A DNA stretch of 64,000 bases from a virus (IMGVR_UViG_3300031957_002411:71791-135790); one strand, 5' to 3'; numbered from the stretch's first letter, positions 11,101 to 55,518 are shown. A program made the numbers and translations. The notes: generated by a model not told the origin, from the letters alone.

Positions 11101-14100
11101 TCCATATGCATTTTTTAATTCAATAGAACCTTTCAAATCTGAGTATGCAAACATTTCAGTAGACGGAGTGGTGCTTCCCTGTAGCGTAACTCCATTTGGA
11201 AGTCTAAAGTCTGTTACATCTGCGTACTTACCTCTAGCTTCTAATAATAAAGGTTTAATATTTATACCTAAACTATTTGCAATTTTCTCAACAGCTCGTA
11301 TCCTATCAATACTAACTGATGATTCATTGCTACTACTACGACCTAAAGTAATATATAATTTTTTATTATTTGTTGAAAGCCATTCTTTAATAAATCCCAT
11401 CTCTCTGTTAAACACTGTATCACTTATGGGATCACCATTATCGTCTAGCAGTGTCGGATTAGCAATCCAAGCAGCTTGATAATGATCGTTGTCTACATAA
11501 AATTTAAATGTTGTAATAGTATCTAATTTTCCGTCAGAAGGTATAGAGGCTTCAAGTAAAGCATCTAAGATAGACTCTTCTCTAGCTTCAAAGAATGAGT
11601 CAGTTCCTGTCCAATCAGCAATGAAAGCGAAGTCTTTTAGTCTCTCTGTTTCACTTCCAACCTCGTAAAGAAGATTGTCATAGAATAAAACATGTCTATC
11701 GTCACGACCACTAAATATAAATGATCTTAGCTCTGTCTCAGTAGTGCCAATTAATATTACCTCTGACGAGCTTTCTGCATATTTTTCTTTAGCAGTTATT
11801 ACCAAAGGCTGGATATTAACAGATGACCTCTTCTGTTCTTTTTCTGGATTGGATTCCCCTCTTAGAATATTAGTTTTATTAAACGATTGATCTGGAGTAG
11901 TTATAAATTTACTAGGACTTGAAGTAGGCTGTATATTTAAATTAATACGCTTGTAATTATTTGAGTCAGCTGACCAGTAAAAAGCAGCCTCTTCAAAGGG
12001 ATCATCTCCAAACACATCTTCAGATATAATTTCAGTACCCATTATATCTTCAATAATTATTTCATCTGGTGTAGCTGGTGTCACCTTCTCAAAACTAACA
12101 TGTTCTGAAGCCACCATCAGAGGAATTGGCTCATAATTTATTAAAGTAGGAAATACTGGACAATCACCTTCACCAAGGCAACATCCATAATCAAGTTCAT
12201 TAACAGTTCCAAACGCAAAAGCTAGATTAACTGGATATATGATAACTCCAAGACCTCTTGGGTCTTCACAAAAGTCATTCCATTCTGCTCTAAGGTCTCC
12301 ACCGTGTTGAGGTATCATATTACATCTACTGTTTAGATCTGCATAACTTGGAAAATCTCCTATTTCTGGAATGCCAAGAATATTCTTTCTTTCTTCACAA
12401 GTATATGCTTCGTATATACCGGGGTAATTTAGTTTTATATCACCCACGCCTGATGCGTAAAGATCAGTACTAAGAACATAAGTTGATGTAGTATTTCTAG
12501 GAACAAAGGATGGTATTACATTTGGTTCATTTTCATTGAATTCTTGGTCATCAAGTCTATTCGACCCAATCATAGATTCAAACGAATTTCTAGCAGGAAC
12601 AATCGTCATTCTAGAATCTAATCGTTGAAGAATCTTATTTATTATTGCAGTGCCTTCTGCGTAAATCCCATTACCTTCAAATCTAGGATCATCAGCGACA
12701 AGAACTAAATGTCTATCACCAAGACCCAACCAATCTTGTATGTTGTCTAAAACTTCATCACTTAGTGCATCTATTTCTGGAGTTATTATAAATGCTAATC
12801 CTGCGTCATTAGGAATGTCAACTTCACTCTCTGGCAGTCTAGTAAATGTTTTGGAATTTGAAGCAAAAATCTGCGACATGTGATCAAACAGATTAGCACC
12901 TTGTGATTCAATATTTACAGATCTATGTTTGTTACCAAACAAAGTAAACTCTACAGCTTTATTGTTGTGCGGATAGTATCTTCTAGATTCAAAAACAGTT
13001 ACAGAACCAGCATTAACACTATTGTACCATTGACTTTTAATATGTGTTACGTGATTGTAGTTAGTTTGTGGCCTCCACCATAGATCAATTAATCTAAGTG
13101 GATCGCCAGTACCTATGTCGTCATGTAAAACGCTATCAGTTGGCGCACCAGCTGCTACTATACTACCATCCTCGTTAACTGCAACACTGTAGCCTAGCCT
13201 TGGAGTAGGAGCAAACTTATTAAACAACCAGCTCCATTCACCTCCCGGTTTTATTTCTGAATACTTATATTCTTTTATTAAATCATAACAATGTATATTA
13301 TTATCTCTACGTAACTGCAATTTACCACTTGGTGTTAATTCATCATACACAGCATTGTCAGCAACACTATTACTACCTGCCTCGCTTTGAAGACTTTGCC
13401 ACCTTCTAAGCATGGTTCTCAAGTATCCCGTTGGATTGTCATTAGACCCAACATCAGAAAGCCAACTACCCACATAAGGTCTTGGATCTACGTAATTTTT
13501 TTGCCATATTTGAACTGCTTCATTAATATAAGGAGAGCCAATAGCAATAACATTTGCATCATCACTAATTGCAACAGCGTGTCCAAATCTATCTACCGTA
13601 TTATTATTTAATGTTGTTGGAGAATAAATCTCATCTATGATATTCCATCCAGAAACTCCATCATTATTTTCTTCTTCAAAAACAACAACTACACCACCAC
13701 TAGGTGGAGCTACATTGAATGTAGCAGCATCAACGTCGAAGTTACCTATAAAGTTAGCAAACAATTCAAAATCTCTAGAATTTTTCATTCTATCTAAATC
13801 TAAAGTTTGACGCAACAATTCATTGGAAAGATCTATCCACCTTTCTCCTCCAAGCTCTCTATTTGTAAACTCAGTTGTAGCTCCAGATCTAGGAGTTCCA
13901 CCTATGTCTGTCACACCACTAGCAAGAGAGTATTCTGCATACCAATCTTTAAATCTATCGAATGAAGCACCTAGTTTTCCTGCTCCCATAGAAAAGCTAT
14001 CATCAATAATAGCAGAAACAATTACAGGTATATTATTGTTTGGTTTTGTTGCATCATACTTGAATACGCCACTCTCTGCACCGTGGAAGATTTGTTTTAG

Positions 14101-17100
14101 TTGTTCAAGCATTTTGTCATCTGTAGCTTGCCATCCACCAGTTTGATTGTTATCAGTTCGTTTGTGATTATTAATCTCAAACTTGAACACTGTTCCATCT
14201 GCTTCTGGATCTATAAATTCGTTAGGATCTGCATTAGCGTCATCCAAAACAGGCTCAACTACAATAATCTTAGGATCTATTTTAACAGCAGGATCACAAT
14301 AGAACTTATATAGTAAATCATGTTCTTCAATGACAGATAGAACATCACGCCATGTTTGCGTAATAGGATGTCCACCCGGACCACGGAATGTGCGCTCTTG
14401 CACAAATGGAGATGTAAAGACAAACAGGGCTACTTGTAAAGAATCTGGAACTGGGTCATCAAATCTTCTAGACCACTTACCGTTTGGCGCACCTGCAACA
14501 ATAATAGGACTGTTTCCAGAGCTAGACATGTCTAATGAATATCCTAGATTTCTACCTTCTTGGTTAAGCGTCCAGTTAGTCTGTATAGCAGCGAATGGAA
14601 GATCCCTCTGATTGGCTGTCCCTTCATTCAATCTAGTAATGACGGATCTTGTCTTGCTATCTCTTCTCATTCCCTCTGGATAAGCCAGTTCTGTTACTAG
14701 AGAGAATCCAGATTTATCATCTTGCTCAGACCAATCAAAGCCGGTAGGTGCAGGATTTCTTTTGTACACAAATACTGAACCAGCTTCTCCAAGAGAATAC
14801 GATCCAGTGAAATCGTGTACTTCACGATATGGCGCACCCACAAGTAAGTAGTTGCCCTTTGCTTTAACGGATGCTCCATATTCGTCACTGTAATCTCGAC
14901 CAGAAGCTTCAGGAGTACTAACAACGCCAGAAGCTCCAGATATACCATCAGCAATTAACTTGATACCAGAGAAATTAACTTCATCATTAAACCCATACTC
15001 TATGCTCATTGATGCTGGAACACTTTTTCTGTCAGTGCCTCCAGACTTACCAAATATAGTCATTTCATAAGGAGAGTCAGGCACAAGTCCAGTATATTTT
15101 CTGATTCCATAGAAGTGACCACTGTATCCTACATCTGTTTTAAAGCCACTAGTAGCTAGATTAGTATACAATCGTTTAGGTCTAAATATTCCAGCTTCTA
15201 CACAATCATCACCAAATGTTTCTCCGTGGATAGTAATTGGAGTCTCAGTTGCTCTTTCAAAATTGAAGTCACAGCTGCCAAATGCTGTCAAATCAACACC
15301 ACGTATTTCATCATTGGCTTCTAAATATGAATAATCAGTTTCATTTGCTAGAATACCTGTTCCAACATTTTCATTAGTCCAGTTGATGAAGTTGGAAGCA
15401 TTGTCTGTATTCGCCAAGAATGCGTAACTCATAGTTACAAGGTTTAGATTAGAAACTCCAGAAGGCACAACTCTAGAACCAATTACAAACAGAGGCATTT
15501 GATCTATATTTGTATCTTGTACTGGCTGTACTGTATTCTCAGTATACAGATTCATTAACTGTGTATCTGTAGTAGGATCTGGAATTGTACCATGTACGAA
15601 TAAAGATTGTTGTTGATCTGTTTCGATCACGCCATCAGAGAATGAAAATAAACCTATACTACCAGATGGTGGCAGTGGTGTGATGTCCGTAGTGACAAAT
15701 AAATTCATCTCAGAACGAGCATCCAACTCTATCTTACCACCAACAAAAAGACTAATAGCAGGATTATGAGTTTGTATATGTGGCTCATGACCAAATAATT
15801 CACCAATAGAACCAAAAGAATTTAGACTTGGATCAAATGTTATACTTCCCTCGATGGTGCTAGTCACTAATGTCAAAGGTGGAATACTACCATTTATAGG
15901 ATCGAGCGATACAATATTTGTACCAGAAGTGTAAAGATTAGCACTTCCACTAGCTACAGGAACAGCTTCACCGCTTGTGTATAGATTAAAGTTTCCAGAG
16001 TCTATGACATGACTATTTACAAAGAACTCTATAGCTTGATTACGAATAGTGCGACCGTCAACATAGAAAGTAAATCCAGATTCAGGGATTATTATTCCAG
16101 AAGCCAAAGCCTCTTCAGCTCTAAGATTTACAGCATGTAATTTAAGATTAGATCTAAATGATGTGCCAGATGGATATGCTAAGTCATACTGAACAAACAT
16201 TTCATCTAAATCAAAATTGTAATATGCTTCAGTCTTTTCTCTATCAATTACATCGCTGTTGAAGTCAGCCCAAGGTTCTGAGTTGTCAATAAAATCTTCA
16301 TAAGTGAAAGTACTGCTCAACTTTTGCCAGCAACCACTCTGCTCTAAGTAGTGTGCCTTACGATTTACTAAGCCATAATTACTTCTTTCAAGCTCACTGG
16401 TGTCGTTATATTGTGGCGCATAAAGGCTAACAATTAACTTAGGACCAGTTGTTCCATCTGACCATGTAACATTATTATCAATGTCATGTTCCATTATGGT
16501 GTCAACAACTAATCCTCTTTGTGTAAAATCGTAACCTCTCGGTAAAGATTTAGATATTCTAGGTGTGACTGCGTAAAATCTATCACTATTGTCATCTCTT
16601 GGCACACTAAGATTAAATCTTAACATGTCATTTTCTATCTGAGAATGATAAGCTAAACCTGATACATTTATAGAGCCACTTGGTAAAGCAGTATCAGTCC
16701 TTTGAGTATAACCACTACCATCATGAGATAGGTTAAAGATAACAAAATCCTTGCCTACTCTTGTTGTAAATCTATCAAACTCATGATTAAATTGACAAAT
16801 CTTAAAGTCACCCAAGTGCCACTTTTCAGTTTCATCGTTTACATATTCCCAGAAATTGTATTGTCGTTTATCGTAAGTAAGACTGCCACTATCAAATGGT
16901 ACTTTAAGAGTCCTGAAGTAACCAGAGGCAGAGGTTTGCTGCATTACTCTAGATTGCTCAGACGGAATCAATCCTTGAACAATATTAGCACCACTAGCAT
17001 TAAATCCACCTAAACCTATGTCTGTTATAAATGCGTTAATACCTATACCAGAACCATAAGAGTGACCAGCAATGATGTCGCTATTGCCTGATTGCATGAC

Positions 17101-33164: not shown

Positions 33165-34223
33165 TTATGTAAAGTTCGTAATAGTAACAGAAGCTTCTGG
33201 TACAACTCCACTTTGATGTCCAAATATGACGACATCATTAACTCTTGAATTAACGAATTCACCATTGTCATTTCTAACAGCTAAAGTAAAGAAGTCAGAA
33301 TTTCTAACGACTACAGCTGGTGTAACCAAGTCCATACTTTGTGGTCCAGAATTAGAAGTAGTACCATTTGCATGAGCAACTACCGTGTAATCGGTAGATC
33401 CATCTGCTACTAGTCCAGACTTAAAGTATATCTTATAAGTTCCAGCACCACTAGCCTCAATTGCTGACACATTGTAAGCACTATTAACAGTGATACCGCT
33501 AAGACCACTATCACTCAAAGAACCATTGAGGTAAGCTGCTCCGTTGAAACTAATCCAAGCCAACGCAGTACTTTTAGCAGTGTGTAGAGTTGATTTGTCA
33601 TAGTCAAACTCAAACTGAGAGTAAGTAGTATCAGTTCCACCGTAATTTCCACTACCAACATGAATTATTTCGCCATACTTGCCAGTGTCTGGGTTCGTTG
33701 TTTCAAAACCCAAACCGTGATTATTAAATGTGATTCCAAGATCTACTAAACCTTTGTTACCACTGCAATTAATCCAACCTTGATTATTACCAATCAAAGT
33801 ATTGTCGATATTATTATAGATATCACCTAGACCTATATTGCCAAGAAATGTTCTCACGCCGCTAGTTGGAACATAAGCGTCATGATCATCCCCAGTTAGA
33901 CCAGCTAAACCGCTATGCTGAATCTCTCCAACACCTCTAAACGGTATAGTTTGTATCTTGTTAGCTTCTGAATATCCAGATGTATCAGAGGTGTCAAATT
34001 TGACTCCACTTTCTGCGACTATTCGTGCAGCAAAGATAACAGATTGATTATTACCATTAATCTTATGAGTCTGGAAGTCTCCACTAGCTACTATTGGAAC
34101 AATAGAGTCAACTGTATCAACCATATTGTTTCTAATATCAGCAGCAGAGATTGATCCAGCGTTATTGTCAGCTATGTCAGTATTTATGCTACTAACTAGA
34201 TCGCTAGCGTTTTGAATTGCCAT
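33165..34223 (-). CDS. Fibre-like virion protein (352 aa)
   Basis: C-terminal 'AKSTALAWISFNG...SAYNVSAIEASGAGTYKIYF' fibre-tip-like motif; GGGAG RBS. Confidence 0.55.
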   Translation of the reverse strand: MAIQNASDLVSSINTDIADNNAGSISAADIRNNMVDTVDSIVPIVASGDFQTHKINGNNQSVIFAARIVAESGVKFDTSDTSGYSEANKIQTIPFRGVGEIQHSGLAGLTGDDHDAYVPTSGVRTFLGNIGLGDIYNNIDNTLIGNNQGWINCSGNKGLVDLGITFNNHGLGFETTNPDTGKYGEIIHVGSGNYGGTDTTYSQFEFDYDKSTLHTAKSTALAWISFNGAAYLNGSLSDSGLSGITVNSAYNVSAIEASGAGTYKIYFKSGLVADGSTDYTVVAHANGTTSNSGPQSMDLVTPAVVVRNSDFFTLAVRNDNGEFVNSRVNDVVIFGHQSGVVPEASVTITNFT

Positions 34224-35483: not shown

Positions 35484-36113
35484 TTATACTCCTACTTTTT
35501 TAGCTCTGCTAATTGCTAACTTTAATATTTTTTTAGCTCCAAATCTTAAGAATGGTAAACGTCTTTTTTTAGCCTCTTCCTCAAGCCAATCTAGTATAAT
35601 TTTTTGATTTTCTTCACACCACTCAATTCCCTTTTTATCCATAACTTTCGCTTTTTGATTACAACTGCAATTGGGAGTTGCCCTAATTCCTATGTAAGAC
35701 AGTAGTTTTTTAAGCTCAGTCCCAACGCCGCTAGAAGACTCGTCTTCTTTAGGAAGATTTGGAGGTTTTGCTGGAAATTCTACATGAGAATCTTTTATTT
35801 TATTATCTACATCAGCATATTCTTGAGAATTCTCTCCATACTTATCAGCTATAAAATTTCTTTGGAAAATATTGACAGCTTCCTCATTTCCCACAATTGA
35901 CATATCATTTGGTATACTATCATCTCCATCAAATAATTTTGGAGGATATACCGGATTCTCTGTATCCACTGTCCATACAGGACCGTCCATGTCAACAATA
36001 CAAGCTGACGAGGACTCAATAGTTACAGCATATTTTCCACACAATTTACAAAATTCCATTCTATCCATTTTTCTATACATGTTAATACCCTTTCTTTTTA
36101 AATTAATATCCAA
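35484..36113 (-). CDS. Hypothetical protein (209 aa) with C-terminal 'GTELKKLL..GI..TPNCSCN..A..MD..G..WC' domain
   Basis: Intact ORF; start may be the internal Met after AAGGG (MYRKMD). Confidence 0.7.
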   Translation of the reverse strand: MDINLKRKGINMYRKMDRMEFCKLCGKYAVTIESSSACIVDMDGPVWTVDTENPVYPPKLFDGDDSIPNDMSIVGNEEAVNIFQRNFIADKYGENSQEYADVDNKIKDSHVEFPAKPPNLPKEDESSSGVGTELKKLLSYIGIRATPNCSCNQKAKVMDKKGIEWCEENQKIILDWLEEEAKKRRLPFLRFGAKKILKLAISRAKKVGV

Positions 36114-39100
36114 CCTTCACCAAACGCTTGTTCGCAATCATAATTACTCAAATACCCCGGTTCGTCTCCACATCCATCAAAATAACCCGGATCACCACTC
36201 CCATCGTAATCTCCTTTCATACAACTTGGAGTGCTGCACTGACAACCATCATACGCTGGACCAATATTGTCATCACATGCTTCACACATGGTTTGTCCAG
36301 CATCCACTGCATCTTTTACGGATTGAGGCCAGCAACATTCGCGCGGTCCATAATAATCATTGTGAACATCGGTAGCAGTCGTCCACCCCCCACAATCTCT
36401 TTCACAATCAAAATCATAATTATAGAAATGTCCCCCGAAGTTGGCATCACATGCTTCATCAGTATCGCCCCCAGAAGCGCTTCCGGGCTGACTGATTGAT
36501 GGGCAGCCACAATATTCATCACTTGTACTATAACTCAAAGTCCATAAAGGAGGACCAGAAGGGCAAGCTGATGTACTAATAACAGTTCCAAAACTTACGC
36601 TAGCGGCAGTGCAATTTGTGCAGTTTCCACCAATTTGCCAGCCATCACAAGCTACCCCATCATAAGATTGACCACCAGCCTTAGCGTTACATAAAAAGAA
36701 TTTTTGATAATATGGTGCATCAGGACCATTATTACCAACAACTTTAGTAGCACTCCAGCTACAAGTTTCACTTTCATAAGCCCATTGATGTCTTGCGCTA
36801 TCAGCTGTACAATTTGCAAAAGGACCAAAGAATCCACTCCCGTCCCAACTTCCCTGTTCGTTATCATCACAGCCACATGAAACACCACTACATTCATCAT
36901 CAGGTGGATCGAAAGCTGTTGTGGTTGGTCCCGCTGTTGTTGCTGCTGCTGTTGTGGTTGTTGCTGCCGCTGTGGTTGATGTTGTTGGCGCTGCTGTTGT
37001 TGATGTTGTTGGTGCTGCTGTTGTTGATGTTGTTGGCGCTGCTGTTGTGGTTGTTGCTGCTCCTGTTGTGGTTGCTGCTCCTGTTGTTGATGTTGTTGGC
37101 GCTGCTGTGGTTGTTGTTGGTGTCGGTGTTGTTGATGTTTCTGTTGTTGATGTTCCTGTCGTTGACGTTGACGTTGATGTTGAAGTTGATGTTGAAGTTG
37201 ATGTTGAAGTTGATGTTGAAGTTGATGTTGAAGTTGATGTTGGTGCTTCCGTTGTAGTTGGCGCTAATGTTGTTGTTGGTGCTTCTGTGCTTGTTGGTGG
37301 TGGTGTTCCCATAGTTGAGCAGGGCTTATAACTAGTTAAGCAAGAAATATAAGCTAAAACACCAGTGTTTTCTCCCCTTCTTGTGATGGCAACTTCAATT
37401 ACCTCATATACAGGTGTAGGAGGATAACTTTCAAAATAGATACCATTCCATTTAAAACACATTCCGGGGAAAGCAGGTTGATCAGGACATTCTGGAGGTG
37501 CAGGGCATAATGAACCTGCTGGACAAGACCAATCAATAATGCACCCATTGCTATCTCTTATGGGGTCAGGAGCTATTGCAGATCCAATAACTCCAGTTCT
37601 TGGATCGCACTCTTCAAAACAACCGGGTTGATCAGGTACTGGAGGACATGGGGCGCGAGTTGTAACAGGTGGCGGGGTAGTAGGAGGAGAAGGATCAAGA
37701 CAGGGATCACCGTCTGGACATGTACAATTTTTTGGGCAACCTCTATTATCAAAAGTATATTCCCCTTCATTCCATCTATTTGCTGATTCATCATAACAAT
37801 ATTGCATTGGAACTAAACCGCATGGAACCGTAGGGTCTTGAGGAGGGCTACCATCTGGACAAGTATAACCTATTATACATCTACGTCCTTCATCACCAAA
37901 AACTGGACCATATATAGGATCAGCTTGCACTATATCCCCATTTTCGTCAACACAAGTTTCCACTGGTATATCTCGGCAATGTGGAGGTTGTGGCCTTGGA
38001 GGTTCTGGATCTTCACCAGTAGGGCAATCTTTAAATCCAATCACACATAGATTTTTATCAAGTATGGGGTCTGCTGGAGTCCATAGACCTGTTAAGGGAT
38101 CGTAGCAATACTCCCACTCATCTACATCGTCACTGCAAGGATTAGGTGCTGGGTCCGGTGGATCGCCATCTTCACATAGAAATCCAATAATACAGCCTGT
38201 CCCCTCATTTATTACAGGTGTAGCTGGAGTCCAACTATTTGTAGTTGGGTCATAGCAATACTGCTGATCTATTGGTCTACATTCTGGAGGAGGTGGTACG
38301 GGATCGTTATCTTCATCTATACAATTTTGATCAGTTATACATCCTGTAACTTGATCTATTTCTGGAGTAGCGGGAAAAATTTCACCTGTTTCGGGATCAT
38401 AACAATACTCTTGCAATACATTGTCTTGACAACCTTCTGGTGGATCTACCGGAGGGCTTCCATCTGGGCATGTGTAACCAGTGACACATCCTTGTTCATC
38501 CAGTGTTGGTGTTGCAGGAGTCTTGAAACCATCTTCGTCCACACAGTACTTTGTCTCTATTTCGCAAGGCGATGGAGGCAATGGAGGAAACGGATCTTCT
38601 GGATCTCCATCATCATCTCTGTCTTCGCAAATTTGATCAATTATACATCCGTTTGAATCCAAAACTGGAGTTGCAAAATATATCTCGTTTGTTGTTGAGT
38701 CCAAACAGTAATGTTGTAAAACAGTAGGACAATCATCTGAAGGATCTCTAGGAGGGCCTCCATCTGTGCAGAAAAAGCCAGTAATACATCCTCTTTCGTC
38801 CACTCTCGGTGTTGCAGGAACTTCGTTTCCATTTTCATCTAAACATACTTTCATAGGAAAAGTAGGACATGGAGTAGGTGGAAATGGAGTATCTGGTTCA
38901 CCATCGCCATCCCTATCTTCACAAGTGGGATCAGTTGGACATCCATCCGGCCCTACTGCTGAATCTGGGATATATATTTCACCTGTTGTTGGGTCTTGGC
39001 AGTATGTCTGTAATATAATAGGACAATCACCATCTGGATCTCTAGGAGGGCTTGGTTCAGGACAAGTATATCCAGTAATACAACCTCTATAGTCTGTTAT

Positions 39101-41569
39101 AGGTGTTGCAGGAATTTCTTTTCCATTTATGTCAAAGCATATTTTGACTTCAACATCTTCACACGGACTAGGTGGAAACGGGCCATCAGGATTGCCATCG
39201 CCATCCCTGTCTTCACAAGTTCCTTGAACTGGACATCCGTTTTCGTCCAACCTTGAAGTTGGTAGATATATTTCACCAGTTGTTTTGTCGTAACAATACT
39301 GCTGTGCCCAGCGCCCATCTGGAGACGGACAGGAATCTGGTGGGTCAATTGGAGTGCCTCCATCCACACATCTATAGTCTACAACACAGCCGGTAACAGA
39401 GTCTACTACGGGTAATGCAGGAACTTTAGTTCCATTGCTTAAGATGCATATTTGCTTCTGAATGTCCTGACACGGAATAGGTGGAAACGGGCCATCAGGA
39501 TTGCCATCGCCATCCCTGTCTTCACAAGTTCCTTGAACTGGACATCCATCTGGACCGATTGCTAAATCTGGAATATATATCTGACCCGTTGTTGGGTCAT
39601 AACAATATTGTTGTAAAATTACAGGACAGTTATCATCTGGATCTCTAGGAGGGCTTGCGTCTGGACAAAAGTAGCCAACAACGCATCCATTATCTATTAT
39701 AGGTGTTGCTGGAATTTCATTGCCATCTACATCAAGACATATTTTTATTTCAATGTCATCACATGGAATGGGTGGAATCGGAATTTCTGGATCACCGTCA
39801 CCGTCTCTATCTTCGCAAATCCCTTCGGTGGGACATCCATCTGGGCCTATTTGTGGAGCAGCAAAATATAATTCACCTGTTACTGGGTCTAAGCAGTATT
39901 TTTGAAGAATAATAGGACATTCATCTGGAGGATCTACAGGAGGACCAGCTGGACATGTATAACCAGTAACACAACCATTTGAATCTACTGTGGGTATTGC
40001 TGGAATTTCATTTCCATTTTCATCCAAACATATTTTAATTTCAACGTCATCACATGGATGAGGTGGAAACGGATTATCAAGACGACATTCAAAATCAATA
40101 ACACAACCATCTTCATTAAGAACTGGAATGCCGGGGACTATATTGCCATCATCGTCAAAACAGTATTTAGTATCAATGTCATCACACTCTGGAGGCACAG
40201 GATCTGTAGGAGGTGGAAATGGACCAAAATCACCGTCATCACATTCAAAATCAATAGCACAACCAAAGTAAGGTGAGTTGGGATCTGTGTCTCTCACCGG
40301 CCTTGCATGATAAAAACTTCCATCTGGACCTTTACAAAGAACATCTATAGGTATATCAGGACAATGTGGAGGTTGGACAGGGCCAGTAGTTCTTGTTGTT
40401 GTTGTAACTTCAGAAGTAGTAGTCACAACTGGTGGTTCTTCTGGATCTGGAGGTCTACATGGATCACCAACCAAAGGCACGCGACCAAATAACCTTAATG
40501 TATAAGAGTAATCACTATATAGTGCAAAAGTGCGTCCATAAGCAGTTACATTTGCAAAGAAAGCTACTTTTATTATTTCTTCATTAAAATTACTTAATAT
40601 AAATGTATCCAAATACGGATAGTTATTTAAAGGGGAGGTAGTAGGTATATTTATTGTTTTAAACGCTCGCCATGTACCTTGACCTCTGCCATCCAATCTG
40701 TAAAAAGTGATTCCGTCAATCTTACAAGTATCGCAACCGCCGTAATTTGGATTAGTTATTCTTACCCTATTAGAATTACAGTAAGGTGGTACTGGAGTAT
40801 AACTTAGGTCTTCTGCAATTAAGGGTGTTGAAGGTGGGTTTTTATCATTACAAACCACGCCGTTGCCAACTTTCTGAATCTTTATACTTTCAATCAAAGA
40901 AGGGCAACAAGCAAGATGATTATCGTCGCAAATGCTTTCTACTTTTAATATCACAAAAGAATTTTGCAAGTCTATGCTTTTATCTATTATATCACAAGAC
41001 TGAAATTCTATATTATCTAACCTTCCAAATTCACCATCATAAGAAAAACTCTTAGTGGCTATTACAGATTGATCTGGTGATAAAATACTAAATTGTAAGT
41101 TTTTAGCAAGAAGTAGTTTATCAGATACTTCAGTGTCAAATAATTCAGATGCTGTTAACTTAATGTTATTAGGCTTTAGTTCAGAGCCATGAGAAAAATC
41201 TACAGATGCAGAGGAGAACAGTTGATTTTTAGAATTAACAGATACTTCATTTTTATGTATGAAATTTCCAGAAGCAACATTATTTATAGTAACTGTTAAA
41301 TCTGTTCCTGAAGGCAGGGCTATTTCACCACAAGTACATCTAGAGTCATCACTTCTAAGATTGTACCTTATGTTGTTATCTTTTAAAGAGAGATAACCAC
41401 GATACATGCATTGATCAACAAAATATCTTTCTGGATTTACAACATACTTTCTCTTGCTTGCGTGGGGATCTACAGTGGTTGTAGTTGTAGAAGTTGTTGT
41501 AACAGTTTGGTATTTAAGGAAAGGATCTGCTGGTGGATCGCACCTTTTCCGTTGTGGGTGAATTCCCAT
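36098..41569 (-). CDS. 1823-aa Cys/Pro/Asp-repeat protein with mucin-like Thr/Ser stalk and Cys-rich C-terminal domain
   Basis: Alternating ~48-aa 4-Cys units; CEDRDGDG motifs; (ST)n and TTTAAP tracts; AGGAA RBS. Confidence 0.85.
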   Translation of the reverse strand: MGIHPQRKRCDPPADPFLKYQTVTTTSTTTTTVDPHASKRKYVVNPERYFVDQCMYRGYLSLKDNNIRYNLRSDDSRCTCGEIALPSGTDLTVTINNVASGNFIHKNEVSVNSKNQLFSSASVDFSHGSELKPNNIKLTASELFDTEVSDKLLLAKNLQFSILSPDQSVIATKSFSYDGEFGRLDNIEFQSCDIIDKSIDLQNSFVILKVESICDDNHLACCPSLIESIKIQKVGNGVVCNDKNPPSTPLIAEDLSYTPVPPYCNSNRVRITNPNYGGCDTCKIDGITFYRLDGRGQGTWRAFKTINIPTTSPLNNYPYLDTFILSNFNEEIIKVAFFANVTAYGRTFALYSDYSYTLRLFGRVPLVGDPCRPPDPEEPPVVTTTSEVTTTTRTTGPVQPPHCPDIPIDVLCKGPDGSFYHARPVRDTDPNSPYFGCAIDFECDDGDFGPFPPPTDPVPPECDDIDTKYCFDDDGNIVPGIPVLNEDGCVIDFECRLDNPFPPHPCDDVEIKICLDENGNEIPAIPTVDSNGCVTGYTCPAGPPVDPPDECPIILQKYCLDPVTGELYFAAPQIGPDGCPTEGICEDRDGDGDPEIPIPPIPCDDIEIKICLDVDGNEIPATPIIDNGCVVGYFCPDASPPRDPDDNCPVILQQYCYDPTTGQIYIPDLAIGPDGCPVQGTCEDRDGDGNPDGPFPPIPCQDIQKQICILSNGTKVPALPVVDSVTGCVVDYRCVDGGTPIDPPDSCPSPDGRWAQQYCYDKTTGEIYLPTSRLDENGCPVQGTCEDRDGDGNPDGPFPPSPCEDVEVKICFDINGKEIPATPITDYRGCITGYTCPEPSPPRDPDGDCPIILQTYCQDPTTGEIYIPDSAVGPDGCPTDPTCEDRDGDGEPDTPFPPTPCPTFPMKVCLDENGNEVPATPRVDERGCITGFFCTDGGPPRDPSDDCPTVLQHYCLDSTTNEIYFATPVLDSNGCIIDQICEDRDDDGDPEDPFPPLPPSPCEIETKYCVDEDGFKTPATPTLDEQGCVTGYTCPDGSPPVDPPEGCQDNVLQEYCYDPETGEIFPATPEIDQVTGCITDQNCIDEDNDPVPPPPECRPIDQQYCYDPTTNSWTPATPVINEGTGCIIGFLCEDGDPPDPAPNPCSDDVDEWEYCYDPLTGLWTPADPILDKNLCVIGFKDCPTGEDPEPPRPQPPHCRDIPVETCVDENGDIVQADPIYGPVFGDEGRRCIIGYTCPDGSPPQDPTVPCGLVPMQYCYDESANRWNEGEYTFDNRGCPKNCTCPDGDPCLDPSPPTTPPPVTTRAPCPPVPDQPGCFEECDPRTGVIGSAIAPDPIRDSNGCIIDWSCPAGSLCPAPPECPDQPAFPGMCFKWNGIYFESYPPTPVYEVIEVAITRRGENTGVLAYISCLTSYKPCSTMGTPPPTSTEAPTTTLAPTTTEAPTSTSTSTSTSTSTSTSTSTSTSTSTSTTGTSTTETSTTPTPTTTTAAPTTSTTGAATTTGAATTTTAAPTTSTTAAPTTSTTAAPTTSTTAAATTTTAAATTAGPTTTAFDPPDDECSGVSCGCDDNEQGSWDGSGFFGPFANCTADSARHQWAYESETCSWSATKVVGNNGPDAPYYQKFFLCNAKAGGQSYDGVACDGWQIGGNCTNCTAASVSFGTVISTSACPSGPPLWTLSYSTSDEYCGCPSISQPGSASGGDTDEACDANFGGHFYNYDFDCERDCGGWTTATDVHNDYYGPRECCWPQSVKDAVDAGQTMCEACDDNIGPAYDGCQCSTPSCMKGDYDGSGDPGYFDGCGDEPGYLSNYDCEQAFGEGWILI
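36920..37300 (-). repeat. Tandem repeats encoding the Thr/Ser/Ala stalk
   Basis: 12-bp GATGTTGAAGTT array (~37165-37240) and ~24-bp units encoding TTTAAPTTS. Confidence 0.85.
39169..39547. repeat. Identical 70-bp direct repeat pair within the Cys-repeat gene
   Basis: 39169-39238 equals 39478-39547 (TAGGTGGAAACGGGCCATCAGG...GGACATCC), offset 309 bp. Confidence 0.85.
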
Positions 41570-41580
41570 AAAATATTCCT

Positions 41581-44500
41581 TTACTTACAACAGCTACCGC
41601 AAGCTATATCTTCATTATTAATAAAAATAGGTCTATATTGTGAATTTATATTTAAGGCTACAACAAAGTCCCCAGATGATATGTGTAAATTTTTATCTCT
41701 ATTGACAATGTATATTCTTTCATTGCTAGGTTCTATTTCTAAAATTCCACTTGTGGGTGAACCATAAGAACTAGGTGTAGCTATACCTGTCTTCATGAAA
41801 CCTTCTACCGCAAAAGGAACCATTCCAGAAAGTGTTGGTAGAGCATTGGTTTCTACAGAAGTACCATCCCTGAACCTAACAGCACCAAGTAACTTAAGAT
41901 CTCCAGATAGAGAAGCGAAAGGTCTAGCAATACTAGGAGCTTCAAAACTAGGAGCAAACTCAACCCCAGACATTTCTGGAGCAGAGTGATCAAAAGTCAT
42001 AAGATCATGAGAGCCGTGAAGACCGCTACCAGTAAATCTAAGATGAAGATCATAAGGAACTCTATAAGAATCTTTAATTTCTGTTTCTATCATGTCATGC
42101 GTAAACTTTAGATACTCAGTCCTAGTAGGATCTTCAGCCATCAAAGTCGCACCCTTCGCAGTCATAGCATAGCTACCATGTAATCCACTAACGGTAATAT
42201 CATTATTATTTCCAATTTGGAAACCATTATCACCTATGGCTGGAAGATTATTACCTATAGAAATTACATTCATGTTGGCAGCATTTGAACTAATATTACT
42301 ACCAAGGAATATATTACCACTTCCAACTGACAAGGTATTTACATTGTTATTTCCAAGGATTGTATTGCCAGAAGCTAGAGTAAAACCGTTAGCAGAATTG
42401 TGTCCAACAACAATATTGCCAGAACCTATTGCGCTAGACTTGGAGGAGCTGCTACCAATCACTGTGTTTCCAGAACCTGTAGCAATCCCTTCTGCTGACC
42501 TAAAGCCAACAGCGACATTGTTAGAGCCAGTTAAAATACCACTCAAAGCTCCATAACCATAGGCAGTATTTCTAACACCAGAGATAGCAGATCTATTAAG
42601 AGGAGAAAGTATACCAGCAAAGGTATTACCACTGTCCATAGTGTCTGTGAACACTAAGTTATCTTGTGAATCAAATCTACTTCTTGTTACAGTTGCTATG
42701 TTTCCACTACTATCTAAGAACTGAAGCTTTTGAGATCTATTAGGTATAAAATCATATTTTACATAAAGTCTACCAAAACCACTATCGTATATTGGATTGA
42801 TAGTAAGGTTATCATCCATAACTTCATGCATCTTGATCACACCGCTTGGATGACCAGATCCACCAATAGTTAATAATTCACTAAGCTCTCCAACCCCACT
42901 AGAGCAAATGCCAACATAGCCACTTTCTGATATAGCTGTAGCCATTACACCGCTAGTAGTTTGATAGATTGTTATACTACCAAGCTTATCGACAGAATCA
43001 TACTTTACTTCTAGCCCATCCGATACGCAATTGTTTCCTGTAAGTAATTGCAAAGCACTGCTAACGTCACCAGCGTTTTCAGCAGTAATTCTTGCTTCTG
43101 CATTAGTGTCAGATCTAACGTTAAATATTGTCGCTGGAGTAAGTGAAAATCCAGCACCCTCATGATCAAAATTATTTATACCAAAAACACCCTTATCACT
43201 AGCGCTATTCGGTTTTTTCATTAACATGAAATGATTAGTAGAATATGAATCATTGTCATATGAACTAAATACTAGTCTATCGGTATTCAAACCTTCAGAG
43301 TCAAGAGTTTGATCATCAACATAAGTTATTTCAAATCCCTGTAAGAAATCCTTAAGATTTTCTCCAGAATTTAAAACTTTGTTACCAGTTAAAAATCTTT
43401 GGATAACATTGATGTCCCCAGACTCTGGAGCGGCGATGGTAAAGATGTAGTCGTTATTAACACCAGAATTTGCTAATAAATTAAAATCACCAAGTCCAGC
43501 GTAATCACCACTATTGTCTACAATGTTTTCTTTAGCTATGAATGCTCTGCCACTCTCCAAGAATAAACCTTTACATTCATTGAACAAAGGTCCATATCCA
43601 TAATGTAATAAAGATACATTTCCGCTATCTAGAACTCTACCAGTTTTAACATGGCATCCACTGCCCATATGCAAGCTAATATTACTATTCCAACTAGACC
43701 TAGTATAAAGAGTGTCTTCGTCTAGGCAGTCTGCTAGAAGTGGATCTAAGCTAGTGCTTGGCTTGAAGATAAATTCATATTCTCTAAACTCAGCTGGAGA
43801 AGTACCACTTCCTCTAGCTATAAATCCAGCGCCTTCTAGTTCAGCATCTGTAAGATAGCCCTGTGGGTGATTTGTCTCAGGATCGAACAAAACATTAAAA
43901 TTAATACCACTGACTGTACCGCCATCAATCGTATCGAAAGTGCCACTAGAAGCTAAATGTATAGTTTTAGTGAGGTAATGGCTTTGCTGAGTTGCTACAA
44001 AGGATTCTAACTCAGTAATACCGCTAACAGTAAGATTATTACCAATGTGTACATTTGAAGATATATTGGCGTTTTTAGTCCACAGGTCTTTCCATTCGTG
44101 ATGACCATATCCTAGATCGTATGTTTGAGATGTGCCAAACGGAACGAAGTCTCCAGAAGAAATTAAATATGGATCATAATCAAAAAACTGGGTGATTAAG
44201 GATTCGCTAGATATAAGGGCAGAACCACTCATGACTACACCATGAGACAAATATAGTTTATCCCAATAGTAAGATGAGTGACCAAGATTAAAATCACGAT
44301 CCATAGAAGGAGATATATTACCGCTTGTCTGTAATGTTCCTACTTCCTTGCTATGAAGACCTCTAGTTCCAACACCCAAAATTAAATTATTATTTGTTAG
44401 ATCGCCATAAACAAGCGGCGTTAAGCCTGTACCTTCAGGATTTGAACAAACGAAACTATGATCGACGGCGTGTGAGCCAATGTACAATTTATAGTCTGTA

Positions 44501-45012
44501 CCTGTTGCAGCATAATATCCAGCTCCTTGCCCTATTGCTATGTTCCAATTGCCATTCTTGTTTCTGCTTAAAGAGTGAGAACCTACGCCTACATTGCCAT
44601 AACCATTAATATTTCCAGTTAAAGCATGTCTACCAATCGCAGCATTCTCTACGCCATATATATTACAAGATAAAGCACTGGCTCCTAAAGCTGTATTACC
44701 ACTACCTTGATAACTAGAATACAAAGCTTGGTAGCCAACAGCTGTGTCGTCTGTAGTTGTGTAATTAGGAAGGTCTAGCTTATCTAAAGCCTCTAAGCCT
44801 ATCTTTACACTTCTTGTGCTAGGTGTAGAGAAATTATTAGAAATTAAATCAGCTATCGTTAAATTTAATTCAGGATCAAGTAGGTTATTGACAGAATCAA
44901 TAATGTCTATTAAATTATGACGAATATCGTGTGGAGAAATTTGACCAGTAATATTATCATTAATTTCAGAGTTTATATTCTCTGTTATCTGACTCTTGGA
45001 CAGGTTAGCCAT
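41581..45012 (-). CDS. Fibre protein (1143 aa) with two beta-roll (YadA-head-like) repeat blocks
   Basis: 14-aa periodic NTALGASAL/NAAIGRHAL/NVGVGSHSL/NIAIGQGAG and NTAYG/NVAVG/NTVIG/NIVVG/NTILG/NIFLG. Confidence 0.75.
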   Translation of the reverse strand: MANLSKSQITENINSEINDNITGQISPHDIRHNLIDIIDSVNNLLDPELNLTIADLISNNFSTPSTRSVKIGLEALDKLDLPNYTTTDDTAVGYQALYSSYQGSGNTALGASALSCNIYGVENAAIGRHALTGNINGYGNVGVGSHSLSRNKNGNWNIAIGQGAGYYAATGTDYKLYIGSHAVDHSFVCSNPEGTGLTPLVYGDLTNNNLILGVGTRGLHSKEVGTLQTSGNISPSMDRDFNLGHSSYYWDKLYLSHGVVMSGSALISSESLITQFFDYDPYLISSGDFVPFGTSQTYDLGYGHHEWKDLWTKNANISSNVHIGNNLTVSGITELESFVATQQSHYLTKTIHLASSGTFDTIDGGTVSGINFNVLFDPETNHPQGYLTDAELEGAGFIARGSGTSPAEFREYEFIFKPSTSLDPLLADCLDEDTLYTRSSWNSNISLHMGSGCHVKTGRVLDSGNVSLLHYGYGPLFNECKGLFLESGRAFIAKENIVDNSGDYAGLGDFNLLANSGVNNDYIFTIAAPESGDINVIQRFLTGNKVLNSGENLKDFLQGFEITYVDDQTLDSEGLNTDRLVFSSYDNDSYSTNHFMLMKKPNSASDKGVFGINNFDHEGAGFSLTPATIFNVRSDTNAEARITAENAGDVSSALQLLTGNNCVSDGLEVKYDSVDKLGSITIYQTTSGVMATAISESGYVGICSSGVGELSELLTIGGSGHPSGVIKMHEVMDDNLTINPIYDSGFGRLYVKYDFIPNRSQKLQFLDSSGNIATVTRSRFDSQDNLVFTDTMDSGNTFAGILSPLNRSAISGVRNTAYGYGALSGILTGSNNVAVGFRSAEGIATGSGNTVIGSSSSKSSAIGSGNIVVGHNSANGFTLASGNTILGNNNVNTLSVGSGNIFLGSNISSNAANMNVISIGNNLPAIGDNGFQIGNNNDITVSGLHGSYAMTAKGATLMAEDPTRTEYLKFTHDMIETEIKDSYRVPYDLHLRFTGSGLHGSHDLMTFDHSAPEMSGVEFAPSFEAPSIARPFASLSGDLKLLGAVRFRDGTSVETNALPTLSGMVPFAVEGFMKTGIATPSSYGSPTSGILEIEPSNERIYIVNRDKNLHISSGDFVVALNINSQYRPIFINNEDIACGSCCK

Positions 45013-45842: not shown

Positions 45843-46850
45843 TTAGAATGAGCCAAGAATCACTCTACGATTGTCTAGAACGCCAAATCCAAGCTCTGCA
45901 AAGCCATAGTAGCCAGCTCTTTGCTGACGATGGAGAGTTGGGTCTTCAAAGACCTGCAACTGCTCCTTAACGGGCATTACGAAGCTGTCATTGCTAGACT
46001 GATCAAGACCAACAACCAATTCAAGGTCACTAGTCTGAACAGCGCCACTGAGTTCTCCAGTGAAGAATGTTTGATATTCTTGACCTTCACCAAGCTCGTC
46101 CAGATCTGTAAGGTTAACACCAAAGATTCTGGTAATTGGAGCGCCACCTTCTGGAGCGGTATAGATCTCACGACGAGTAACTTCGTCAACTTGATCCAAT
46201 CCCCAGCTACGGACATCTTCCAAAGCTTCTGGAGAGACATAGAGATCAGTAAGGCGACCACGCCCAGCTGAAGCACTATTTCCACCAGAGTTTCGACGCA
46301 TAACAGTTTGCATGAGAGAAACAAGTCTCTTGCTGAATAGTCCAGCAGTTGCATCACCGTCAAAGACAAGGATGTTACGGTCAACGCCAGCGGCGAGGAG
46401 AGTGTGCCATCCATCATCATTCATCTTCTTGGTAAAACCAGCTTCCATGACTTGCATGGCGCGACCAACAACGTCCCAACGAGCGTCACGGGCATATCGG
46501 AGAAGATAATCAACCGATGATGCAATGGCGTAAGTTGGAATCATGACGTAATCGCCTTCTACTGAACGCTCTGGTATTCTACCATGACCGGGATTAGTGT
46601 AAGCTACATGCTCACCTTCAAGTCCGGGGCTGATAAGATCAAGAGGAAATTCAGTTGTTGAGCCAGCTTCTACATTAATGGTTTCAAAAATGTTACCAAG
46701 AATGTTTCCAACAAGGACACCCTTGCGGAGTGGAAGCTCAAGTGCTTTAGCGAATTCTCGCTGTGCAGCTTGGGCTACGTTTACATCTGCATCTCCTGAT
46801 TTCTTCAGAAGACCGATGAATTCATCACTAGGTCTTTCATTAATAGGCAT
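45843..46850 (-). CDS. Major capsid protein (335 aa, HK97-like fold inferred)
   Basis: Start refined to ATG at 46850 (AAAAGGAG RBS); portal-protease-decoration-MCP synteny; 'FEDPTLHRQQRAGYYGFAELGFGVLD' C-terminus; followed by terminator. Confidence 0.85.
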   Translation of the reverse strand: MPINERPSDEFIGLLKKSGDADVNVAQAAQREFAKALELPLRKGVLVGNILGNIFETINVEAGSTTEFPLDLISPGLEGEHVAYTNPGHGRIPERSVEGDYVMIPTYAIASSVDYLLRYARDARWDVVGRAMQVMEAGFTKKMNDDGWHTLLAAGVDRNILVFDGDATAGLFSKRLVSLMQTVMRRNSGGNSASAGRGRLTDLYVSPEALEDVRSWGLDQVDEVTRREIYTAPEGGAPITRIFGVNLTDLDELGEGQEYQTFFTGELSGAVQTSDLELVVGLDQSSNDSFVMPVKEQLQVFEDPTLHRQQRAGYYGFAELGFGVLDNRRVILGSF

Positions 46851-46875
46851 GTGTTTTTCTCCTTTTTGTATTATA

Positions 46876-47364
46876 TTAGTTAGCGCCAAAGTTAGGCAAG
46901 TTGACTTCGACCTTTACATATCCGTCTTCATCCTTACTTGAAAGGAATCGACCGATAGCAAGATTACCAGAAGCAGCAGCTGTTGCAGCGTCAGTTCTGA
47001 TGTTACCAGCGGTAGCTGAGTCAGCGTAAGCAACCTTGCCAGCAACTGGAGTACCAGTGATGCTGTTGGTTACAACGTAACCCTTACGAAGAACAGTAAC
47101 CTTACCACCCTTTTGCACTTCATCTTTGTGCTGATTCAAGTGGGTTCTTGTGAGATCCTTATTAACTACATCGTTAAGAAGGATACCAACAGGTACATCT
47201 GTAGCAGTTACCTGCTTGTACTTCACAAGGTTAACACCTTGATCCATAGCAGCACCCGATCCAGCCGTATCATGTACAACAACACCACCGCGAGTTGCGG
47301 TTCCATCATTGTAGAAAAAACTGATATCTGTCTGGAGTTCTAATCTATCTGATTTTAGAGCCAT
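46876..47364 (-). CDS. Capsid decoration/cement protein (162 aa)
   Basis: Between scaffold and MCP; 'GGKVTVLRKGYVVTN...G..AY....G...IGRFLSSKDEDGYVKVEVNL'; AAAAGGAG RBS. Confidence 0.65.
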   Translation of the reverse strand: MALKSDRLELQTDISFFYNDGTATRGGVVVHDTAGSGAAMDQGVNLVKYKQVTATDVPVGILLNDVVNKDLTRTHLNQHKDEVQKGGKVTVLRKGYVVTNSITGTPVAGKVAYADSATAGNIRTDAATAAASGNLAIGRFLSSKDEDGYVKVEVNLPNFGAN

Positions 47365-54297: not shown

Positions 54298-54536
54298 TCT
54301 ACTTTGTCTATTCTCATAAGCCTTCTTACTTTTCTACAAAATATTCTAGTTTCTATGTCATTGCTTTGTCTAATTAAAGACCTCATTAATCTTATCATTA
54401 TCTCATAACATGCTTGATCTGCATTTTCTGATTCTAGTATGTAAAGTAAAAAAGGTGAGTTAAATTCACGCAGACCGTATCTGTCCAGTTTTGGATATAA
54501 ATCTACTAAGTCTAGTGATACTCTATAGTTTGGCAT
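54288..54536 (-). CDS. Hypothetical protein (82 aa)
   Basis: Overlap-coupled with both neighbours. Confidence 0.65.
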   Translation of the reverse strand: MPNYRVSLDLVDLYPKLDRYGLREFNSPFLLYILESENADQACYEIMIRLMRSLIRQSNDIETRIFCRKVRRLMRIDKVECL

Positions 54537-55509: not shown

Positions 55510-55518
55510 TTTTAGTCC

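Follow-up and report, generated by a model that had tools for sequence, protein, structure and literature searches.

A cysteine-rich repeat protein of an uncultured marine phage as a possible distal segment of an accessory virion fibre

Introduction

Phage fibres are normally trimeric β-structures that are poor in cysteine (Cys). The gene for the protein P0001 raises the question of what a protein with 121 Cys is doing among the structural genes of a virus. It lies in a 64,000-nucleotide stretch (referred to here as the window, with positions counted from its first letter) of the 135.8 kb virus record IMGVR_UViG_3300031957_002411 (71791-135790). Our preferred answer, to which we assign a probability of about 0.5, is that P0001 forms the distal segment of a segmented accessory fibre on the virion of an uncultured marine tailed phage. 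The genomic context favours this reading, as the gene is embedded in a structural module with head and fibre genes upstream and the tape measure gene downstream. A long appendage made of Cys-rich beads on a string, with calcium-type loops and a stalk resembling mucin, would follow another building plan, and it raises the further question of how a particle assembled in the cytoplasm gains dozens of disulfides.

Our analysis supports the view that the protein itself belongs to a kind already known, the phage accessory fibres and adhesins, and that the new element is the orphan module from which it is built. To this the sequence comparisons add a context that points to a segmented fibre: the gene appears to be an optional cassette that occupies a hypervariable slot, its N-terminal module is specific to the lineage, and the N-terminus of the slot protein pairs with the end of the fibre protein encoded upstream.

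Results

P0001 is built around an array of four-Cys units

An initial annotation, made from the sequence alone, had described a long repeat protein with on the order of 100 or more Cys, and this description holds: the region is a single open reading frame (ORF). The 121 Cys of P0001 make up 6.6% of its residues and are accompanied by 230 Pro (12.6%), 191 Thr (10.5%) and 190 Asp (10.4%). For comparison, the 147 other ORFs called in the 135,790-bp genome have a mean Cys content of 1.43%, and the other structural proteins of the genome contain 0–1%. No signal peptide is visible, in agreement with the annotation: the N-terminus has no hydrophobic segment, the highest 15-residue Kyte-Doolittle mean within the first 75 residues being –0.1. 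The segments of the protein are listed in Table 1.

The centre of P0001 is occupied by 19 consecutive units of 44–59 residues, all of which share the Cys spacing C-x7..12-C-x18..26-C-x5..6-C. Over its 963 residues the array contains 81 Cys, 166 Pro and 131 Asp. When the 19 units are aligned, the four Cys are the only invariant columns (19/19), while an Asp after Cys2, a central Pro-Ala-x-Pro, a Gly before Cys3 and a Pro-Pro linker are frequent. The linkers between units are Pro-rich and 12–17 residues long. Inspected by eye, residues 1361–1417 resemble a degenerate 20th unit that carries an insertion, and the annotated count of about 20 units is thus a fair one. The same annotation had the units alternate between two sub-types, a pattern that is clear in units 3–12 but looser in the later units. 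One limit concerns the length of the array: a 70-nucleotide (nt) exact repeat at 39169-39238 has a second copy 309 nt further on, and short-read contigs break there, so that the copy number of one double unit is without independent confirmation.

Four exact CEDRDGDG motifs and one variant, CEDRDDDG, were found at the positions claimed for them. The five D.D.DG sites (residues 587, 684, 787, 885 and 983) all follow Cys4 of one unit and precede Cys1 of the next. In an orthologue fragment, P0006, the canonical CEDRDGDG stands at the position of the variant.

Pairwise comparison of seven double units gave synonymous divergences (dS) of 0.70–2.64, with two comparisons saturated, and ratios of non-synonymous to synonymous divergence (dN/dS) of 0.13–0.81, which were at or below 0.5 in 16 of the 19 computable pairs. 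The high dS together with the low dN/dS indicates that the copies are old and have been kept by selection at the protein level rather than produced by recent slippage. The Cys of the array are likewise kept in orthologue fragments, namely 23/23 at 96% identity, 25/25 at 70% and 10/10 at 93%, and those of the C-terminal domain in two fragments (17/18 and 14/15) whose identity was 61–64% in the search and 70% in this comparison. In a 454-type run containing a diverged strain, the best 40 of 56 differences fell into 33 codons, 8 of them changed synonymously and 25 not, and none of these 33 changed codons was at a Cys. As the data are single contigs at a depth of 3–4, they give no more than a hint that surface residues are free to vary in that strain and Cys are not.

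C-terminal to the array, the features named by the initial annotation were also recovered. A Thr/Ser/Ala tract claimed to span about 125 residues measures 135 residues, and the Cys/Gly/Asp-rich tip corresponds to a C-terminal domain of 268 residues with 24 Cys, 37 Gly and 29 Asp. This domain is presumed to be a distal, ligand-binding tip.

Table 1. Positions in the window of P0001, its segments and motifs, and selected neighbouring genes
Feature	Position	Strand	Residues and remarks
Whole ORF of P0001	36098..41569	-	1823 residues; ATG start, no interruption
Proposed N-terminal docking peptide	41345..41569	-	1-75; alignment A6, 15 sequences
Lineage-specific N-terminal core module	40835..41359	-	71-245; iterated hidden Markov model, alignment A4
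Second N-terminal region	40376..40834	-	246-398; Thr-rich linker at its end
Array of 19 four-Cys modules with Pro-rich linkers	37487..40375	-	399-1361
Small domain, maybe a 20th unit with insertion (by eye)	37310..37486	-	1362-1420
Mucin-like Thr/Ser/Ala/Pro tract	36905..37309	-	1421-1555
Cys/Gly/Asp-rich C-terminal domain	36101..36904	-	1556-1823
CEDRDGDG motif 1	39794..39817	-	585-592; DxDxDG-type loop between units 4 and 5
CEDRDGDG motif 2	39503..39526	-	682-689
CEDRDGDG motif 3	39194..39217	-	785-792
CEDRDGDG motif 4	38900..38923	-	883-890
CEDRDDDG variant	38606..38629	-	981-988
P0002, fibre-like protein	41581..45012	-	1143 residues; PHROG virion structural and tail spike matches
209-residue ORF	35484..36113	-	First 16 nt overlap the end of P0001
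352-residue protein	33165..34223	-	
Putative capsid protein	45843..46889	-	348 residues
Protein with FG-GAP repeats	8128..20013	-	3961 residues; after the 1791-residue tape measure

The N-terminus of the slot protein co-varies with the end of the upstream fibre

The comparisons that follow were made with related loci, defined as the 80 best capsid-matched loci in IMG/VR and oriented with the capsid gene on the plus strand. The gene immediately upstream of P0001 encodes the 1143-residue protein P0002, whose C-terminus is a C-x2-C-C-x cluster. At least two Cys within the last 12 residues of the upstream protein were found in 11 of the 15 loci that bear the N-terminal module of P0001 downstream of it, and in none of the 24 loci that lack the module and have more than 2.5 kb of downstream sequence. 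Moreover, each type of tail has its own partner. Cys-cluster tails pair with an N-terminus of the form M-G-x-P...C...P-x-x-P-[FY]-x-x-Y followed by a Thr-rich string, S-C-S-G-x-x tails with M-T-x-C-C-x-C, and H-I-D-G-type tails with M-A-F-V-L-x-D-R-V-K-E, while an empty slot goes with yet another tail type.

We counted this pairing by two patterns, one for the Cys-cluster tail and one for its N-terminus, over 47 rows (46 loci and the window) that represent 40 distinct pairs. Both patterns were present in 14 pairs and neither in 25; one pair had the tail only and none the N-terminus only (Fisher's p 6e-10, with patterns picked post hoc and related loci that are not independent). The discordant pair, from locus L009, is of the same type when judged by eye. 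Within the 15 aligned tails (alignment A5) the Cys C139 and C142 are invariant, and among the 15 aligned N-termini (A6) Cys54 is invariant and Cys10 is present in at least 90% of rows; Gly2, Pro16 and a poly-Thr stretch are the other conserved features of the first 75 residues. The co-varying parts are confined to the last ~10 residues of the upstream fibre and the first ~20 of the slot protein. It is on account of this co-variation that we read P0001 as a distal fibre segment, and it provides moderate evidence, at the level of sequence, that the N-terminus of the slot protein docks on the C-terminal end of the 1143-residue fibre.

Several points weigh against this reading. The patterns were set after inspection of the data, the relatedness of the loci is uncontrolled, and, as the two sites are only ~50 nt apart, they could be inherited jointly in one recombination block without any contact between the proteins. 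Four module-bearing loci (L027, L029, L037 and L039) have no Cys tail, and there the module gene lies two genes further downstream. No PHROG or Pfam fibre family matches P0001. Finally, the particle is put together in a reducing cytoplasm, and a cytoplasmic oxidase is absent from the Pfam-scanned ORFs.

The same four loci are in accordance with a different proposal, namely that P0001 is an independent decoration fibre of the head or neck, whose N-terminal module is fixed to the capsid or collar and not to the upstream fibre, and which acts as a general adhesin towards particles or mucus-like matter, similar to what has been proposed for Hoc-type decorations. The gene cluster stands immediately behind the genes for the cement and putative capsid proteins and ahead of the likely connector genes, and the slot is dispensable, both of which would suit a decoration protein. 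However, the co-variation (14/25/1) fits an end-to-end joint better, and P0001 matches no capsid-decoration family. We consider this proposal credible but improbable.

The gene occupies an optional and variable slot

Searching the 80 loci with tblastn returned a gp80-like protein in 78 and the 1143-residue protein in 71. Of P0001, only the N-terminal 398 residues were recovered, in 8 loci (23–29% identity), and none of the 80 gave a match to the repeat array, the middle piece or the C-terminal domain. An iterated hidden Markov model (HMM) of residues 71–245 extended the N-terminal module to 15 of the 80 loci (13 distinct sequences), always downstream of the 1143-residue homologue. In the resulting alignment (A4, ~165 columns), a C-x-C-G near the start and an S-x-C near the end are invariant in 14/14 sequences including that of the window, and a further Cys (C152), eight residues past the Cys of S-x-C, is present in at least 90% of rows. 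The module has no match in Pfam or the PDB, and library profile searches gave no family match for residues 246–398.

Slot occupancy was counted on the 10 of the 80 loci that cover both the end of the 1143-residue homologue and the next conserved gene. Among the other 70, 10 have no match to the 1143-residue protein, 22 have its C-terminal end outside the locus and 38 have the downstream flank outside the locus. The slot is empty (75–102 nt) in six of the ten, holds 3.1–5.3 kb of module-bearing genes with 4.3–8.5% Cys in three, and contains unrelated, Cys-poor genes in one. Slot proteins examined from other loci combine poly-Thr or (Thr-Ser)n strings with differing Cys-rich pieces in a mosaic fashion. 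From these counts it follows that the P0001 gene is an optional cassette in a hypervariable position. One slot protein of 786 residues and 67 Cys (L056:15946-18306) contains a Hint/intein-like segment at residues ~215–356, which was hit by four Hint-type Pfam families (E 1e-5 to 7e-4), all under their cut-offs.

Receptor-binding proteins classically combine an N-terminus that is conserved with a distal part that varies, and the flanking genes have weak PHROG matches to tail fibre and baseplate families. P0001 could on this basis be an essential, primary receptor-binding tail fibre, with slot variation reflecting host switching. We regard this as quite unlikely, given that six of the ten fully covered relatives carry no slot gene and that giant tail-tip candidates (3961, 1385 and 1160 residues) lie past the tape measure, the usual site of receptor-binding proteins.

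Still further from what we expect is a protein that does not belong to the virion at all and is either released at lysis or acts within the cell, in a role such as decoy, matrix protein or metal sink. Such a role would be compatible with the missing virion evidence and family matches. It is very unlikely in view of the tight packing of the gene in a structural operon (it begins 11 nt behind the stop codon of the fibre gene upstream and overlaps the ORF downstream), the lack of a signal peptide by Kyte-Doolittle hydropathy and the modular, fibre-like layout of the protein.

The overlapping 209-residue ORF may itself be an assembly factor or a part of the cassette, with which it travels. Tblastn located homologues of its C-terminal half in 5 of the 80 loci, all of them among the 15 that bear the module.

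The repeat unit is a candidate new fold family

The initial annotation had called the repeat an apparently new domain within a long appendage, and our searches agree, both on its orphan status and on a structural-module position beside fibre-like genes. A Pfam scan of the whole protein at expectation values (E) up to 1 returned only Kelch_1 (E 0.29) and SWIM (E 0.8). The Kelch repeat (PF01344) was rejected, scoring 11.1 bits against a cut-off of 20.1 and over only 15 residues. EGF, F1, TNFR-CRD, granulin and other small disulfide-rich Pfam families were likewise not found at E up to 1, and membership of TSP_3 (PF02412) was discarded, this family being absent from the scan at the same threshold. 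Searched against the PHROGs, the whole protein matched no family at E ≤1, nor did its N- and C-terminal pieces at E ≤0.05. Sequence matches in the PDB to designer Kelch or 'Cake' proteins were not read as homology; they consist of an 11–15-residue turn motif (C-Y-D-P-x-T) worth 2.5–7.8 bits per stretch, summed over identical designed repeats. The label 'eukaryote-style' does not survive as more than an analogy of architecture, as no eukaryotic family matched.

We then utilised a HMMER profile of the unit, a tool that the annotation had proposed for searching viral metagenomes, to search 1,835,955,588 representative proteins. Of nine matches at E ≤0.001, three were strong, and all three are fragments of 157–305 residues from near-identical or 70%-identical orthologues. 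The weak matches are unrelated repeat proteins, save for a similar motif in P0010, a lipoprotein-like protein with D-x-N-G-C...G-Y-x-C repeats (E 2.4e-6) and no informative Pfam match, which by its sequence is a possible distant analogue of the repeat. A word-indexed search of 5.8 billion proteins with residues 400–1420 found no relative among 8000 scored candidates (1002–3191 residues). The same search returned two near-identical fragments for the N-terminal 398 residues, one of them chimeric, and two fragments of 61–64% identity for the C-terminal 268 residues. P0014 (269 residues, from a 1,036-bp contig) joins the first ~165 residues of P0001, at 93% identity, to an RNA polymerase Rpb1-type domain and is most likely an assembly chimera.

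Searches of nucleotide and viral collections were similarly silent. A scan of IMG/VR with P0001 gave no pattern match, a scan of metagenome contigs gave 31 pattern matches and not one true relative, and blastn of the gene against GenBank phages gave no match. The ESM Atlas contains the P0001 sequence itself and no usable feature match. Run against six-frame translations of the 80 related loci, the unit profile reached a best E of 0.027, which is not significant, and it was found in none of five related full records. An apparent resemblance, by eye, of the C-terminal domain to parts of proteins from L052 and L035 was dropped, since BLASTP gave E 0.48 and 9.5 and phmmer nothing. The literature yielded no description of such a protein. 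Judged by its sequence relatives, the 19-fold array is confined to this phage and those most closely related to it.

AlphaFold2 modelled unit 6, with an alignment of the 19 paralogues, at a predicted local distance difference test score (pLDDT) of 85.3 and a predicted template modelling score of 0.57. The model has a β-hairpin over the Y-C-Y-D-P-x-T-G turn and short bridges elsewhere. Units 3–7 modelled without an alignment reached a pLDDT of 54 and were unusable. With the 52-residue unit model, Foldseek against the PDB gave a best E of 2.5, with EGFR, fibronectin F1 and DR6 rows at E 4 to 6, a structure search of BFVD a best E of 0.76, and VIA wide three chains at Z ≥2, the best at 2.6. Since a model of only 52 residues gives such searches low power, their silence does not prove a new fold. 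We regard the modelled four-Cys module as a candidate for a new fold family that might also serve as a small, stable scaffold.

Disulfides, metal and calcium

Stabilisation of P0001 by disulfides or metal is plausible from its Cys pattern. Metal would be bound, in one version, at a single site per module formed by its four Cys, with Zn2+ or another thiophilic metal stiffening the rod in the reducing cytoplasm. The invariance of four Cys per unit, the cytoplasmic assembly without an identified oxidase and the faint SWIM zinc-finger match all lend themselves to this explanation. The spacing, however, is C-x7-8-C and C-x5-C and not that of CxxC zinc-ribbon knuckles, and the Cys have no His partners. 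A Pro-rich, acidic, calcium-loop context and an oxic marine habitat rather resemble extracellular disulfide modules, and disulfides in a virion have a precedent in the phage Pam3 (PMC9942802). We therefore hold metal sites in the modules to be the less probable arrangement, and a doubtful one. A zinc ribbon or knuckle in the strict sense was rejected, as two CxxC (or CxxH) knuckles are absent in all 19 units.

The annotation had suggested looking for a thiol oxidase or Dsb-like gene elsewhere in the genome. None was found by a Pfam scan of 131 ORFs (40 + 91, all of at least 60 residues). A single redox candidate emerged, a thioredoxin-fold protein that has a hydrophobic N-terminal segment and a WCSPC site and whose gene adjoins genes of periplasmic type. 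By these features it looks exported, and it is unlikely to act on a cytoplasmic substrate.

Binding of Ca2+ by the DxDxDG loops is plausible from the motif. The type-3 motif of thrombospondin (TSP) is a D-x-D-x-D-G-x-x-D calcium loop bracketed by Cys. The loops of P0001 fit this pattern between Cys and within an acidic, repeat-rich protein, with the difference that there is a single loop per double unit here, as opposed to the contiguous wire of loops in TSP.

The Thr/Ser tract and the glycan genes

The tract between array and C-terminal domain consists of 67 Thr, 20 Ser, 23 Ala and 14 Pro with no Cys, so that Thr and Ser account for 87/135 residues. It qualifies as mucin-like in the sense of a Pro/Thr/Ser (PTS) domain, being a long run dominated by these residues and free of Cys, and P0001 is the only ORF in the genome with a 30-residue window of at least 60% Thr and Ser. 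The underlying DNA is made of tandem repeats with periods of 6 to 24 nt. In the run X19, which contains the diverged strain, a contig joint within the tract (36942-37092) skips 149 nt and inserts 14; the net change of –135 nt is in frame and removes 45 codons, and the joint is weak (depth 3.6, shorter side 28 nt).

The phage carries an unusually large set of glycan genes, at L001:4925-14561, L003:5177-19856, L004:5655-9411 and window 54523-57511. The set comprises glycosyltransferases of families GT1, GT2, GT8 and GT25, FkbM and other methyltransferases, a DegT aminotransferase, epimerases/dehydratases, a KDO8P-synthase-like enzyme, a cytidylyltransferase, a sulfotransferase and sugar-nucleotide genes. 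Family-2 glycosyltransferases occur in 4/5 related long records, and this genome has several. When three GT2 genes were tested for likeness to polypeptide N-acetylgalactosaminyltransferases (ppGalNAc-transferases), none had a PDB sequence match at E up to 0.01. With such genes at hand, it is plausible that glycosyltransferases of the phage O-glycosylate the Thr/Ser tract.

Discussion

A possible mechanism

Taken as the distal segment of an accessory fibre, P0001 would work as follows. Its N-terminal peptide would dock on the C-terminal Cys cluster of the 1143-residue fibre, with an intermolecular disulfide or a shared metal site as the joint. Each four-Cys module would form a small β-hairpin bead with two internal, local disulfides. 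Oxidation would have to follow lysis, in oxic seawater, unless metal binding took its place. Linkers rich in Pro, together with DxDxDG loops loaded with Ca2+, would give a semi-rigid rod in Ca2+-rich seawater, with a length that we roughly estimate at ~100 nm. The Thr/Ser tract would serve as a flexible spacer, probably O-glycosylated, and the C-terminal domain would bind a ligand on the host surface or on particles. If the tip binds in this way, P0001 would extend the reach or host range of the phage and would not be essential for assembly.

Comparison with known systems

The long tail fibre of T4 (gp34-gp37) is a segmented fibre. Podophage A1002 has chain-like fibres made of two proteins (PMC13730344). 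What the present locus shares with these two systems is the side-by-side arrangement of the genes, an end-to-end joint and a conserved proximal with a variable distal part. The present joint differs in that it is proposed from co-variation alone and that the junction is Cys-rich, and the distal part consists of small Cys modules and a mucin-like tract and not of a trimeric β-helix or coiled coil.

A closer parallel for the chemistry of the joint is the freshwater cyanophage Pam3, whose tail fibres are disulfide-linked to the baseplate wedge and freed by dithiothreitol (PMC9942802). Both are aquatic phages in which Cys clusters and intermolecular disulfides hold fibres, as a proposal in the case of P0001 and as described for Pam3. 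Moreover, the present phage encodes a cement protein with a match to the Pam3 gp6 / E217 gp24 family. However, Pam3 employs a few Cys at one interface, whereas P0001 has 121, mostly in its modules, and no homology between the fibres was found.

On the level of architecture, P0001 is reminiscent of animal matrix proteins in which EGF, fibronectin F1, TNFR and furin-like arrays are combined with mucin PTS regions, which share Cys beads of 35–50 residues, Pro-rich linkers and a Thr/Ser stalk. This is an analogy only, as there is no sequence match and the Cys spacing is another. As for glycosylation, Freeman and colleagues reportedly found in 2023 that mycobacteriophage virions are glycosylated, the targets being the C-termini of capsid and tail-tube proteins. 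The present phage likewise encodes glycosyltransferases, with which it may modify proteins of its own virion; the candidate target, in contrast, would be the 135-residue mucin-like tract.

Wider implications

All these parts can be joined into one picture, which as a whole we hold to be doubtful. A globally common phage lineage, with a probable host among the Planctomycetota or Verrucomicrobiota, would maintain a hypervariable slot for Cys-rich, matrix-like adhesins of orphan folds. P0001 would be a ~100 nm rod of a new fold, locked after lysis by at least 38 disulfides and loaded with Ca2+, bearing an O-glycan brush made by the phage and clipped to its carrier fibre through a Cys cluster, as a disulfide knot or a zinc clasp. 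If this were true, it would amount to a redox- and ion-triggered 'unfolding antenna', for which there is no described counterpart in phages. Independently of the full picture, a slot with many orphan Cys-rich modules, in a lineage present in hundreds of viral contigs, may be a rich source of adhesin domains and may help to reveal how phages of poorly cultured bacteria recognise their hosts. The pairing of tail and N-terminus offers a concrete, testable rule for the exchange of cassettes.

Genome, lineage and habitat

On the minus strand, the genes run in the order ERCC4 nuclease, ClpP-type prohead protease, large terminase, a probable portal of 670 residues, a 487-residue protein, the cement protein (E217 gp24 / Pam3 gp6 family), the putative capsid protein of 348 residues, a 230-residue protein with a GP4 gp80-type fibre domain, P0002 and P0001. 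Next in order are several small ORFs, further genes for fibre-like proteins and the likely genes of connector and tail, and then the tape measure (1791 residues) and the giant proteins. Of the latter, the 1385- and 1160-residue proteins precede the FG-GAP protein and have no family match. The remainder of the genome is made up of replication genes and glycan genes. The annotation had placed P0001 between fibre and neck genes; its neighbours are indeed fibre-like, but the neck genes could not be verified. The five genes downstream (209, 97, 102, 173 and 352 residues) have either no significant family match or weak, fibre- or baseplate-like ones. With the 352-residue protein as query, tblastn matched at 36–48% identity inside ORFs of the 1143-residue homologues in related loci, and the 352- and 1143-residue proteins thus appear to share a homologous segment. 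The sequences suggest that a related fibre-gene family lies on both sides of the slot.

The end of the genome carries, in a row, a thioredoxin-fold gene, a PSCyt1/PSCyt2/PSD1 gene and a DUF1501 gene (L001:586-4570), followed by a full-length transfer-messenger RNA at L001:4570-4910 (Rfam RF00023, 116.6 bits; tag ending in ALAA); a tRNA-Arg(TCT) lies at L001:472-543. A related complete record of 174 kb (L165, L166) has two DUF1501 genes in mid-genome, which indicates that the genes of this region are phage-borne. The nearest cellular homologues of the DUF1501 gene, at 43–45% identity, come from Planctomycetota and from Chthoniobacteraceae (Verrucomicrobiota). This similarity is only a hint that the host belongs to one of these groups. 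Elsewhere, two adjacent ORFs (L002:6922-8130 and L002:8135-8599) each have an N-terminal Mtd_N (major tropism determinant) domain; Pfam scans of the genome revealed no reverse transcriptase.

The putative capsid protein has at least 596 relatives in IMG/VR, of which the best 80 are 84–95% identical, and it matched nothing among 50,697 GenBank phage records. The phage lineage is common, yet undescribed and uncultured. None of the runs listed as containing the P0001 gene is an RNA run. The gene itself was found near-verbatim in 18 seawater or marine runs from seven studies, some of which may be the source sample or duplicate filings.

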